Assembly: GCA_045543015.1 (NCBI GenBank)
Contig: JAZQLY010000031.1
Location: 1,565-65,564 of the forward strand
DNA: 64,000 bases
DNA from: Eubacteriales bacterium
GTDB taxonomy: Bacteria > Bacillota > Clostridia > Oscillospirales > CAG-272
Direction: 5' to 3'
The translations under genes were made by a program, and so were the position numbers. Positions 13,369-18,426 of this stretch are shown piece by piece. How positions within the stretch are numbered: position 1 is the stretch's first letter; the number at the start of each line of letters is the position of its first letter. The notes beneath the pieces were generated by a model. The model had not been told where the DNA came from. It did no database searches and worked only from the letters and a program-made list of their open reading frames with translations.

Positions 13369-13397
13369 TTGACAAATACCAACTTCGGTGGTATACT
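13369..13397 (+). promoter_or_regulatory. promoter of the SipW/TasA-type operon
   Basis: TTGACA - 17 nt - TGgTATACT; ~125-nt leader to the first ATG. Confidence 0.55.
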
Positions 13398-13529
13398 TCA
13401 TTATGCACCATTATATGATTGATATCTCAAAGGTGCTGCTGTAACAGGGGTGCTTACCAAACCACCGAGCCCCCCGTTTTTGCATGACCTTGGATATAAA
13501 AACAAATATACAGAAAGGAAACAAAAACA

Positions 13530-14078
13530 ATGACCATGAGAAACAGAAAAACCGCCATCACCGCCTTCATCCTGGTAGCCGTTATGCTGTTGGCTGTTGG
13601 TTTTGCAGCCATGTCCGACGATCTGAGCATCACGGGTAACGCCACGATCACTGCCGAGAACGCAGAGAACGCCTTTGCTGCGGACGTCTACTTCACTGAG
13701 GCCGTTATCTCTGCCGATAAGGGTACTGCTACGATCGGCCCCGATACCAATGGCGAGGCAGCCGATAAGATCACCATCGTGGTTGATGACAATGCCATGT
13801 CTGGCCAGGGCGACTCTGTCATCTGCGCAGCTGAGATCACCAACGCCGGCGACGTTGACGCATGGGTCAAGCTGGACTCCATCGTTGTCAGCAACGGCAC
13901 CTACTTCAAGGTCAGCACCAGCTGGGGCAACACCAGCGTTATGCCTCTTGCTGCAGGCGATACGCTGGACATCACCATAACCCTCACCTGCATCAAGACG
14001 CCGCAGACCGAGGTGACCACCGCCTTTGATCTTGGCTTCACCGCTACGGACTACGATCCTACCATCGTTACCCCGTAA
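13530..14078 (+). CDS. small exported protein with SipW-cognate-type signal peptide (TasA/camelysin-like class)
   Basis: 182 aa; basic n-region, h-region, then VGFAAMSDDLSITGNATI resembling the TasA GGGTWA|AFND cleavage region; beta-rich mature part. Confidence 0.65.
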   Translation: MTMRNRKTAITAFILVAVMLLAVGFAAMSDDLSITGNATITAENAENAFAADVYFTEAVISADKGTATIGPDTNGEAADKITIVVDDNAMSGQGDSVICAAEITNAGDVDAWVKLDSIVVSNGTYFKVSTSWGNTSVMPLAAGDTLDITITLTCIKTPQTEVTTAFDLGFTATDYDPTIVTP

Positions 14079-14123
14079 TTCCATCATTCGGTTCGTCCGA
14101 AAGTAAGAGAAAAGGAGGGCGGC

Positions 14124-15248
14124 ATGACCGACAGAAAAAGATTACATATCCTTTCGGCTTCGTTTTTTGCCGCCCTTCTGATCATCTTTTTGATTCCCTT
14201 TGATACGGCAGGGCGGATCCTTGCTGCCGTTGCATGTACGGCAGCTGCGATCGTTGCCGTATTGCTTATCAAAAAAAGAAGCATTCCATCCGTGAATCAG
14301 CAACAGGTGCTTATGATCGTGTCGGTCATGGCGGTGGTTTACCTGATGCTGTACTACCTCACCGGGCTGGAATTTGGTTATCTCAACAATCCCTATGCCC
14401 TGCGGTTAAGGTTCTTTTTCACGCGTATGATTCCCGCGGCCGTGATCATCGTGGCCACGGAGGTCTACCGCTGGATCATCCGTGCGCAGGAGGACCGGGC
14501 ATCGGAGATCCTCTGCTACCTCTCCTGCGTTCTTGCGGAAATGATCATTTGCGCAACGGCAGACGTGGCGATCTCCTCCTTTAACCATTTTATGGAGCTG
14601 GTCGCAGAGACCATGTTCCCGGCCTTCATTGCCAATCTTCTCTACGGCTATCTGTCTAAACGATACCGCTTTTACCCCAACATCGTTTTTCGCGCCGTTA
14701 CCACGCTTTACCTGTACTTTATTCCGGTGATCCCCGGGATCGCCAAATCGCTTGTCTCATTCATAAACCTTTTTACGCCCCTTTTGATCTTTCTGTTCAT
14801 TGATTCACTTTTTGAAAGAAAGCGGCGTTATGCCCTGGTCAAAAGGAGCAAGCTCGCCGTTCCCATCACCGCCCTTGCCATCATGGCCATGACGGCCACG
14901 GTAATGATCATATCCAACCAGTTCTCGGTTGGGGCTTACGTTATCGCTACCGAAAGCATGACGGGTGAATTAAACAAAGGGGACGCTGCCATATACCAGC
15001 GTTATGAGGACCAGACCATTGCAGAAGGTCAGGTCATTGCTTTTGAGAAAAATGACCGTGTGGTGATCCACCGTGTCGTTGATATACAGATCATTAACGG
15101 ACAAACACGTTACTTTACCAAGGGAGATGCCAACGCAAGCAAGGATACCGGGTTTATTTTCGATTCGGATATCATCGGCCTTGTAAACTTCAAGATCCCT
15201 TATATCGGCTACCCAACACTTTGGATGCGCAGCCTGTTTCACCGTTAA
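14124..15248 (+). CDS. SipW-type (ER/archaeal-type) signal peptidase I fused to an N-terminal ~260-aa polytopic membrane domain
   Basis: C-terminal 110 aa carry the catalytic Ser (ATESMTGEL), His (VVIHRVV) and GDAN box of SipW-type peptidases; N-terminal part has ~7 hydrophobic helices. Confidence 0.75.
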   Translation: MTDRKRLHILSASFFAALLIIFLIPFDTAGRILAAVACTAAAIVAVLLIKKRSIPSVNQQQVLMIVSVMAVVYLMLYYLTGLEFGYLNNPYALRLRFFFTRMIPAAVIIVATEVYRWIIRAQEDRASEILCYLSCVLAEMIICATADVAISSFNHFMELVAETMFPAFIANLLYGYLSKRYRFYPNIVFRAVTTLYLYFIPVIPGIAKSLVSFINLFTPLLIFLFIDSLFERKRRYALVKRSKLAVPITALAIMAMTATVMIISNQFSVGAYVIATESMTGELNKGDAAIYQRYEDQTIAEGQVIAFEKNDRVVIHRVVDIQIINGQTRYFTKGDANASKDTGFIFDSDIIGLVNFKIPYIGYPTLWMRSLFHR

Positions 15249-16848: not shown

Positions 16849-16877
16849 ACAATCAAATAACAGGAAAGGAGAGAGTT

Positions 16878-18380
16878 ATGATGACAAAGCGTTCTATCGC
16901 AGCAGTATGTGTAGCTCTCTCCTGTATGTTTCTGTTCATCACCGTTGGGTATTCCTCCTTCACGGATGACCTGAGCATGACCGGCTCCGCAACGATCGAG
17001 ATCCCGGAGGGCCTTTTCATTATCGATATCGTAACCAAGGGCACCGGCAACGTTGATCACCAGACGGTAGAATTTATACCGTACACCACAACGGTAGATG
17101 CGACCATTGACAAAAAGAATGAAACCACCTCGTCCTCCGGCGGCGGTTGGTGGCCGGGCTGGGGTGGAAACCAAACCACAACAAAATACGCCGGCACCGT
17201 TACTTACGAGATCACCGTCTTTAACAATACCGATCATGAATACGCTTACCGCGGTCTGTTCTACCAAACCGCCCTTACGGGATATAACGGGAACGGCTAC
17301 GTCAGCACCGCCAACAGCAACTCCAGGATCGGCGTTACGGTAAGCTTTCCAAACAATGACAGGATCGTTGCCCCGGGTGAGACCCTGGTCTTTACCGCCA
17401 CGTATACGGTAGGCCAGGATATGGCAGACGCCACCGACTGGCGGACGCTGCTGAACTTCCAATTCGGTATCAACGTAGAATCTGAGGCGGCAGCGAGAAA
17501 TGCTGTTTTTGAAAAATTCCTGGATATCCTGAACACCCGCTCCACCTACGATACCCTGGTGGATAATCTTGACAACAAGTTTGACGGACAGCAGGAATGG
17601 ACCTCCAACTACATTGGTAACGTAAGCAACGCCGTAAACAGCGACTCGTATGCCGTAGAGACGCTTTTTGCCGGCCAGCTGAACATGATCATAGACGGGC
17701 AAACAACGCCGGCCAGCGTTTTGATCAAGCACGAGAATCTGGACTGGAACAACAATACCGGTGACGATTACGTGGCGAAAAACGAGACAAACGGCGGTGA
17801 ATTCCGCGGTTACGGCTGTGAGATGACCTTGTACCTTACCACCGACCCGCTGGATACCCCCAACGGCTATGCGCCGGTCTACGTAGCGGTATTTACCTGC
17901 GACCGGGATGAGAACGGCAACATCGTGGGCGGCTGGTACCGAATTGGTGATACCTATGCCGGCCAGGCCAACATCGTGGGCTACAACGGCGAGGCAGGCG
18001 GCACCGGCTCCTTCGTTACCGATAACTGGAAGGCGTATGCAGGCACTTATTCCCCCACCGAGAAATTCAGTTATTCGGTGGAGGCAGGCACCACCATCAA
18101 GACCCTCGTTCAGGTGGTGGATGATGCCGCTATTGCGGAGTTCCAGCGTATATTGACCGATTCCAAGGCAATCATTGAGGACCTGCGCTATGCGGGCATC
18201 GGCATTGAGCGGATCGAGAATGCCTATCTCGATGCAAGCCGCTATTACACCCTGGACGCAGACGGCAACCCCGTTGCCAACGCGGGTACCACCCGCGCAC
18301 AGCTGCTCCCCACCATGATCGAGCTGAATTATGCCCTGTCAGAGGCCAAGGATGCCATTGATTCCTTGCCTGCACATTAA
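16878..18380 (+). CDS. large exported protein (500 aa) with SipW-cognate-type signal peptide
   Basis: N-terminus VGYSSFTDDLSMTGSATI in the same register (residues 24-40) as the 182-aa protein; Gly/Trp-rich insert SSSGGGWWPGWGG; RBS AAAGGAGAG. Confidence 0.65.
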   Translation: MMTKRSIAAVCVALSCMFLFITVGYSSFTDDLSMTGSATIEIPEGLFIIDIVTKGTGNVDHQTVEFIPYTTTVDATIDKKNETTSSSGGGWWPGWGGNQTTTKYAGTVTYEITVFNNTDHEYAYRGLFYQTALTGYNGNGYVSTANSNSRIGVTVSFPNNDRIVAPGETLVFTATYTVGQDMADATDWRTLLNFQFGINVESEAAARNAVFEKFLDILNTRSTYDTLVDNLDNKFDGQQEWTSNYIGNVSNAVNSDSYAVETLFAGQLNMIIDGQTTPASVLIKHENLDWNNNTGDDYVAKNETNGGEFRGYGCEMTLYLTTDPLDTPNGYAPVYVAVFTCDRDENGNIVGGWYRIGDTYAGQANIVGYNGEAGGTGSFVTDNWKAYAGTYSPTEKFSYSVEAGTTIKTLVQVVDDAAIAEFQRILTDSKAIIEDLRYAGIGIERIENAYLDASRYYTLDADGNPVANAGTTRAQLLPTMIELNYALSEAKDAIDSLPAH

Positions 18381-18387
18381 GCAACGC

Positions 18388-18426
18388 AAAAGGGACACCT
18401 ACCGTAAAGAAGGTAGGTGTCCCTTT
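18388..18426. terminator. bidirectional intrinsic terminator
   Basis: AAAGGGACACCTACC-loop-GGTAGGTGTCCCTTT between convergent genes. Confidence 0.85.

Follow-up and report, generated by a model that had tools for sequence, protein, structure and literature searches.

A four-gene operon of a Clostridia bacterium encoding an archaeal-type signal peptidase, a DUF5305 protein, and two candidate subunits of a putative extracellular fiber

We analyzed a stretch of 64,000 nucleotides (nt) from a Eubacteriales bacterium (CAG-272; assembly GCA_045543015.1, contig JAZQLY010000031.1, positions 1,565 to 65,564 of the forward strand). This whole stretch is called the window here, and coordinates refer to it unless a related locus is named. 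Our subject is an operon of four co-oriented genes, g1 to g4, predicted to encode a small and a large secreted subunit (g1 and g4), a signal peptidase (g2), and a DUF5305 membrane protein (g3). Its features are as follows.

13369–13397, plus strand: sigma-70-type promoter, TTGACA-17-TATACT, with TG upstream of the −10 hexamer (extended −10); score 11/12
13398–13529, plus strand: 5′ leader of ~125–130 nt, with a hairpin at 13447–13474, loop ACCAAACCACC, and then a U-run at 13477–13481
13530–14078, plus strand: g1, open reading frame (ORF) of 182 amino acids (aa)
14124–15248, plus strand: g2, ORF of 374 aa
15262–16848, plus strand: g3, ORF of 528 aa
16878–18380, plus strand: g4, ORF of 500 aa
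18389–18426, plus strand: intrinsic terminator closing the operon, 15-pair stem (8 G-C pairs) followed by a T-run

Within 11.5–19 kb, the promoter at 13369–13397 was the top-scoring site, and the hairpin at 18389–18426 was the best terminator. The ATG of g1 lies 132 nt past the end of the −10 hexamer, which fits a leader of ~125 nt, and the intergenic gaps are 45, 13, and 29 nt. An initial annotation of this DNA had described just such a tight four-gene operon, and its gaps, promoter, leader, and 15-bp terminator were all recovered. Its assignment of a GGAG-type ribosome-binding site to every gene held for g2, g3, and g4, which have AGGAG-type sites, but not for g1, which has AAAGGAA. The geometry of the genes suggests a single transcript that begins at the promoter (13369) and stops at the terminator (18426). 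In related loci, strong promoter-like sites (≥11/12) lie 60 to 220 nt 5′ of g1 in ~17 of 51.

The g2 product combines a membrane domain and a peptidase domain, as the initial annotation had proposed. Residues 249–366 match TIGR02228, the archaeal/endoplasmic reticulum (ER)-type, SipW-type signal peptidase I family (76.5 bits; cutoff, 51.85), and the protein also matches Peptidase_S26 (26 bits; cutoff, 22.9). This domain is fused to an N-terminal polytopic domain (residues 1–265) with ~9–10 hydrophobic helices, as judged by hydropathy and inspection. Among 53 orthologues, conservation is 97% or higher at the catalytic-site residues S278 (SM motif), H316-R317, and D335 (GDAN); g2 thus has a Ser/His(/Asp) catalytic site where bacterial enzymes have a Ser/Lys dyad. 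Its Ser-His spacing of 38 and its His-Asp spacing of 19 are close to those of Bacillus subtilis SipW. The score against the Bacillus SipW equivalog NF046067 was below threshold (50.8 bits; cutoff, 190). By these profile matches, g2 is SipW-like and not a SipW orthologue.

The adjacent gene, g3, encodes a two-transmembrane (TM) protein whose residues 141–340 match PF17231 (DUF5305; 42.5 bits; cutoff, 29), so that both the topology and the family guessed in the initial annotation were right. Hydropathy and composition, together with a conservation profile over 31 orthologues, gave the following layout: TM1 (17–44), an extracellular domain, TM2 (237–272), a conserved cytoplasmic segment (~276–348), an acidic linker (361–445), and a C-terminal domain (446–528). 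The acidic cytoplasmic tail claimed for this protein therefore has to be redrawn. The acidic stretch at 361–445 is there (37.6% Asp+Glu), but it is only an unconserved linker, beyond which lies a conserved, basic C-terminal domain of ~80 residues, with Y454, Y456, D457, P458, G466, and P472 each conserved to 97% or more. Neither a family nor a PDB relative was found for this C-terminal domain (within residues 361–528; window 16342–16845). A 357-aa archaeal DUF5305 protein, to which g3 has weak similarity (E 0.005), is without the linker and the C-terminal extension. In the literature searched, all mentions of DUF5305 concern archaeal or cross-domain donor-strand fibers. In the haloarchaeal twin-arginine translocation (Tat) fimbriae (Tafi), the DUF5305 protein TafG has been proposed as a helper of the multi-TM peptidase TafD (PMC11821415, PMC12337348). 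By analogy with this literature, g3 may be an accessory protein of the g2 peptidase.

At the N-terminus, the g1 and g4 products both show a single hydrophobic span. In g1, a signal peptide (residues 1–26) is followed by a predicted donor strand (~27–41; AMSDDLSITGNATIT) and a beta-sandwich (~53–173). In g4, a g1-type signal peptide and donor-strand N-terminus (SFTDDLSMTGSATI) precede a beta-sandwich (46–200) and a conserved module (208–500). The two proteins are 32% identical, but the identity is confined to the first ~50 residues, where they share an n-region, a hydrophobic core, G24-x-[A/S]26, and x-hydrophobic-x-D-D-L-S-[I/M]-T-G-x-A-T-I. Every member of the g1 family keeps A26, and conservation of G24, L32, and G36 is 90% or higher. 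Cleavage after residue 26, as predicted, would leave g1 starting with A-M-S-D and g4 with S-F-T-D, in register with the N-termini of AbpX (YA/QWSE, the slash marking cleavage) and of TasA as seen in the fiber structure (WA/AFND). Both mature proteins are acidic: the isoelectric point (pI) is 4.05 for g1, with 14.6% Asp+Glu, and 4.22 for g4, with 13.1%. Pfam and NCBIfam yielded no assignment for either, and their C-termini (...DYDPTIVTP in g1 and ...AIDSLPAH in g4) have no LPXTG sorting signal and no C-terminal TM segment. AlphaFold2 (AF2) models, both of monomers, gave a nine-strand beta-sandwich with an unstructured N-terminal extension for g1 (predicted local distance difference test [pLDDT], 86.8), and for g4 (pLDDT, 84.7) a beta-sandwich (46–200), helices (203–264), a beta-rich core (269–401), and a helical C-terminus (407–496). 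The g4 module at 208–500 (293 residues) had no relative in Pfam, the PDB, or BFVD.

The closest published counterparts of this gene set come from fiber loci. Archaeal Tafi loci encode a polytopic signal peptidase I, a DUF5305 accessory protein, and minor or tip subunits (PMC11821415, PMC12337348). According to a January 2026 preprint (bioRxiv 10.64898/2026.01.04.697558), archaeal and bacterial signal peptidases associated with AbpX have ten TM helices, and in most abpX-like loci there are further genes for minor subunits, for tip proteins, and for a DUF5305 accessory protein, which has a beta-sandwich outside the cell, a pair of TM helices, and a domain in the cytoplasm; the AbpX-like proteins themselves have a pI as low as about 4, with Asp and Glu making up about 15% of residues. 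The partners that the initial annotation had called noncanonical are therefore already on record for Tafi and AbpX-type loci. At the sequence level, g2 residues 121–367 align, membrane helices included, with a 411-aa peptidase from an archaeal AbpX-like locus (E 3e-13), in which the order is subunit, 226-aa ORF, 411-aa peptidase, and DUF5305 (locus L071). We further compared the g1 family with an AbpX profile of 7 sequences, made of Pyrodictium abyssi AbpX (PDB 9sj2/9rhp) and six relatives. HHalign gave 92.8% (E 4e-7, 148 columns), and a local rerun at full length gave 95.2%. Removing the signal peptide and donor strand lowered the value to 83.9% (E 8e-6), and a reversed-sequence control gave 0.4%. 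BLASTP found no similarity between g1 and AbpX. By profile comparison, the g1 family is thus a remote relative of AbpX.

The four genes travel together. We collected 69 species-level loci from Oscillospiraceae, Faecousia, Christensenellaceae, and genomes named "Eubacteriales/Clostridia bacterium," from the gut of yak, sheep, goat, deer, and cattle. All of g1 to g4 were present in 48 of the 69 genomes, nearly always in the order g1-g2-g3-g4 and sometimes as g4-g1-g2-g3; they are therefore real, co-inherited genes rather than chance ORFs. None of the genes flanking the operon in the window co-occurred with the cassette across the 69 loci. Median identity to the window proteins was 33% for g1, 47% for g2, 45% for g3, and 50% for g4, and in one locus (L001) it was 80% for g4, 70% for g3, 57% for g2, and 32% for g1. 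The fast divergence of g1 suggests diversifying selection on the small subunit, or its replacement. For g4, at least 543 homologues were found, typically 55–60% identical over the full length, all unannotated and from metagenome-assembled genomes of Clostridia. Some genomes have a g4-like gene with no g1 to g3 within 8 kb (loci L022, L023, L063, L064, and L066), and a divergent g4 subgroup is shorter, with 26–37% identity; g4-type proteins may thus also occur outside the cassette. A search with the g1-family profile returned 4618 cluster representatives at E≤1e-3, and among the ORFs of the window it matched g1 and g4 only. One 6164-aa protein (P0157) matched the profile in 42 separate stretches (profile positions ~80–134), from which it follows that the g1-type sandwich also serves as a tandem repeat in a giant, presumably surface, protein.

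We consider it rather probable that the four genes form a self-contained cassette that makes an extracellular fiber or protein matrix of the TasA superfamily, of the AbpX/Tafi type, a type that brings its own peptidase complex. We base this reading on the TIGR02228 match and catalytic residues of g2, the DUF5305 match of g3, and the published pairing of such peptidases and DUF5305 proteins with Tafi and AbpX fibers; on the homology of g2 to the archaeal AbpX-like peptidase, the HHalign match of g1 to AbpX, the N-terminal register, and the acidic composition; and on the modeled beta-sandwich with its free N-terminal extension, the weak Foldseek matches that include chaperone-usher pilins and the TasA fiber, the position of g1 and g4 as sole profile matches in the window, and the synteny in 48 genomes. 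The faster change of g1 relative to the machinery genes also supports it, as would be expected of an exposed major subunit. In its general logic, a dedicated SipW-type peptidase encoded with two candidate secreted subunits, the TasA-like arrangement of the initial annotation stands.

In the proposed mechanism, g1 and g4 would be exported via Sec and tethered to the membrane by their signal peptides. g2, acting with the two-TM g3, would then cut after G24-x-[A/S]26; conservation and the literature point to both this site and the g2-g3 partnership. The freed N-terminus (A-M-S-D-D-L-S-I-T-G in g1 and S-F-T-D-D-L-S-M-T-G in g4) would act as a donor strand, residues ~27–41, that enters the beta-sandwich of the next subunit, and repeated insertion would give thin, chaperone-free fibrils. 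Calcium may assist polymerization, given the acidic residues at strand positions 4 and 5 and the pI of about 4. We propose g1 as the bulk, or major, subunit because it is small, acidic, and fast evolving; the conservation of g4 and its extra 293-residue module suggest a role as tip, nucleator, or functional subunit. By the same strand, g4 would join the fiber as tip, nucleator, or adaptor and could supply a specific function, such as adhesion or cross-linking. A bolder version, conceivable but doubtful, is that the cassette builds an unrecognized fiber organelle of uncultured gut Oscillospiraceae, with a hypervariable g1 shaft, a g4 head of new fold serving as an adhesin for a conserved host, mucus, or cell wall ligand or as a lattice cross-linker, and a g3 extension that couples assembly to an intracellular partner.

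Several observations weigh against the fiber cassette. The fiber itself, the cleavage site, and co-transcription are all inferences from sequence. g1 and g4 gave no match at E≤1 to PF12389 (TasA/camelysin) or to TIGR04088, the SipW-cognate signal, and TIGR04088 was weakly matched by 5 of 143 g1-family members (best E, 0.003); the SipW-cognate class given to the two signal peptides in the initial annotation is thus not borne out by these families, although the N-termini keep the TasA/AbpX register. The g1 family also showed no profile similarity to verified B. subtilis TasA in HHalign (5.9%). At its second position, the predicted g1 strand has Met, or Leu in most orthologues, and not the AbpX-type aromatic residue. 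The predicted g4 strand, S-F-T-D, has the aromatic residue at 2 and an acidic one at 4, and g1 is likewise acidic at 4, both given the predicted cleavage site. HHalign of g4 residues 1–207 with the g1 family gave 98.3%, which fell to 52% once the first 41 residues were removed; we therefore treat the g4 N-domain as belonging to the fold class of g1, with homology probable. In Foldseek searches of the PDB, the top matches of g1 were generic immunoglobulin (Ig)-like domains with template-modeling scores of 0.3–0.44. Matches included MSP/PapD-like, CARDB, and DUF11 or fn3-like domains and, weakly, chaperone-usher pilins and the TasA fiber (rank 49); the AbpX structures were present in the searched PDB yet lay outside the top 50. 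Finally, the operon has no S-layer homology (SLH) or LPXTG anchor and no sortase, unlike many bacterial abpX loci, and no sortase-like ORF is conserved in the related loci.

Part of this list would suit an account, in our view unlikely, in which g2 and g3 merely mature two proteins that do not polymerize: g1 and g4 would be monomeric Ig-like surface proteins, adhesins, or S-layer-associated factors, and their common N-terminus a recognition element for the peptidase. The generic Ig-like matches, the missing anchor, and the unmatched TasA hidden Markov models agree with it, as does the fact that polymerization of g1 and g4 is itself inferred. A recognition element does not readily explain, however, why the conserved segment runs ~15 residues past the cleavage site, with L32 and G36 near invariant, in what AF2 models as an unstructured extension. 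The similarity of g1 to AbpX, a proven donor-strand polymer, also persists in the globular domain, and the peptidase-DUF5305 context has so far been tied to fiber systems. A different possibility, and an improbable one, keeps the fiber but locks it covalently after donor-strand exchange, as in BsaA of Clostridium perfringens, through an intermolecular isopeptide bond, catalyzed by Glu or Asp, from a strand Asn or Asp to an acceptor Lys. BsaA-type TasA relatives in Clostridia do polymerize by exchange and lock (PMC11580942), g1 has Asn37 in its strand, and a D79-K80 pair is conserved among close g1 homologues; nevertheless, N37 is not conserved, K80 is conserved in the close homologues only, and such bonds are predicted in only a subset of the TasA superfamily (PMC11580942).

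We regard as very improbable a link to sporulation, with the operon making, for instance, an appendage of the spore or a coat-associated fiber under control of the neighboring AbrB-like regulator. Its appeal lies in the genes directly upstream, a spoIIIAA-AH operon and an AbrB-domain gene, found in both the window and a 97%-identical relative, and in the first description of B. subtilis TasA as spore associated (PDB name, "spore coat-associated protein N"). The spoIIIA operon (SpoIIIAA, AB, AC ... AH) occupies the minus strand at ~10263–11700 and further upstream (also locus L075, 82–4827), divergent from abrB, and its presence indicates that the host is a spore-former or derived from one. The abrB gene (11771–12016, plus strand) encodes 81–82 aa with an AbrB/SpoVT-type N-domain (TIGR01439, 37.7 bits) and a Cys-rich, zinc-ribbon-like C-terminus (CCLFCG...CRDC), by which it is not a Bacillus-type AbrB. 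The 97% relative retains the window order of spoIIIA operon, abrB, zinc-ribbon protein, operon, and prfB. However, this context is not conserved: in a 73%-identical relative, the cassette stands among unrelated genes without abrB, and an AbrB-like ORF lies near the cassette in 1 of the 69 species-level loci, one that is without g1 to g3. The link to abrB drawn in the initial annotation thus comes down to adjacency in the 97% relative, with abrB absent from the 73% relative and from 68 of the 69 loci. Furthermore, the promoter is of the sigma-70/sigma-A type and not of a sporulation-sigma type, and the upstream regulators in 13–16 of the 69 loci are a histidine kinase (PF06580 plus HATPase_c) and a response regulator directly 5′ of g1 (e.g., L027 3504–4310 and L029 2213–3481). 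Regulation of the cassette thus differs among lineages, and the window has no such pair.

The remaining features of the locus concern its leader, base composition, and immediate neighbors. The hairpin in the 5′ leader is terminator-like: a stem (GGGGUGCUU and GAGCCCCC) encloses the 11-nt loop and is followed by a U5 run. The leader RNA folds with a z of −2.24, and an Rfam search of it returned no match. The stem and the 11-nt loop are kept, with 2 compensatory pairs, in the 73%-identity relative (L073 ~6590–6625); the motif was not found upstream of g1 in more distant loci. The hairpin may be a lineage-specific attenuator or protein-binding site. The operon block had been described as less rich in guanine and cytosine (GC) than its flanks, and it is (0.50–0.54 versus 0.56–0.60), but the window has several other 1-kb bins with GC just as low. 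A gene at 12075–13199 (plus strand), located between abrB and the operon, encodes a 374-aa protein with two zinc-ribbon-like CxxC pairs, a C-terminal TM helix (348–374), and sub-threshold Pfam matches only; it is conserved in the 97% relative and does not travel with the cassette. On the other side, a convergent gene (18444–18803, minus strand) for a 119-aa protein with an N-terminal TM helix and an acidic C-terminus ends just past the operon terminator, so that the terminator hairpin may work bidirectionally. No family could be assigned to this protein, and it is conserved in the 97% relative only.

TasA-superfamily donor-strand fibers are emerging as a biofilm scaffold common to bacteria and archaea, and those characterized come from Bacillus, C. 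perfringens, and extremophilic archaea. The AbpX/Tafi-type architecture of a polytopic peptidase with a DUF5305 protein is already known. What is new is a subunit distinct at the family level that no existing hidden Markov model covers, a 500-aa partner with a relative-less 293-residue C-terminus, an extended DUF5305 protein, and a wide spread in uncultured gut Clostridia. Judging from 48 species-level genomes with all four genes, over 540 homologues of g4, and relatives of the g1 profile in the thousands, the archaeal-style module of polytopic peptidase and DUF5305 protein is widespread and tightly conserved in uncultured Clostridia of the herbivore gut. If the cassette does make a fiber, it would open a way to study matrix or adhesion structures of gut bacteria that make up a major yet uncultured share of the microbiota, and it would provide a bacterial model for the function of DUF5305 accessory proteins.

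Compared with the tapA-sipW-tasA operon of B. subtilis and the sipW-bsaA-bsaB-bsaC operon of C. perfringens, the present operon likewise encodes a SipW-type Ser/His peptidase with its own substrates. In all of these systems the substrates share an N-terminus of the G-x-A/A-F-x-D type (slash, cleavage) that becomes, or here is predicted to become, the donor strand, and the same strand is carried by a minor or accessory subunit, TapA in Bacillus and BsaB in C. perfringens. On the other hand, SipW is a small two-TM enzyme, whereas g2 is polytopic; the Bacillus and C. perfringens operons have no DUF5305 partner, whereas the operon here has g3; and, unlike in the TasA operons, control by AbrB is unsupported here and g1 and g4 fall outside PF12389 and TIGR04088.

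The haloarchaeal Tafi system, with TafA, TafC, and TafE subunits, TafD peptidase, and TafG DUF5305 protein, shares with this operon a dedicated multi-TM peptidase paired with a DUF5305 protein. There, too, several subunits, tip and adapter among them, have a donor-strand N-terminus in common, and the model is donor-strand complementation. Most haloarchaeal Tafi subunits, however, have Tat signal peptides, whereas those of g1 and g4 are Sec type with no twin arginine, and TafD has four predicted TM helices and an N-terminal catalytic domain, whereas in g2 about nine helices precede a C-terminal catalytic domain.

AbpX-type loci differ from this operon in further respects. The operon has no SLH or LPXTG anchor, sortase, or cyclic di-GMP genes; g4 is a distinct, highly conserved 500-aa family, and g3 has the additional acidic linker and C-terminal domain; and the host clade consists of uncultured gut Oscillospiraceae/Clostridia. 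The likenesses are a small acidic beta-sandwich subunit of ~160 mature residues with a pI of about 4, an N-terminal donor-strand motif that keeps the register and is acidic at position 4, a neighboring TIGR02228 peptidase whose large polytopic domain is homologous to that of g2, a DUF5305 accessory gene, and an additional, larger "tip-like" subunit.

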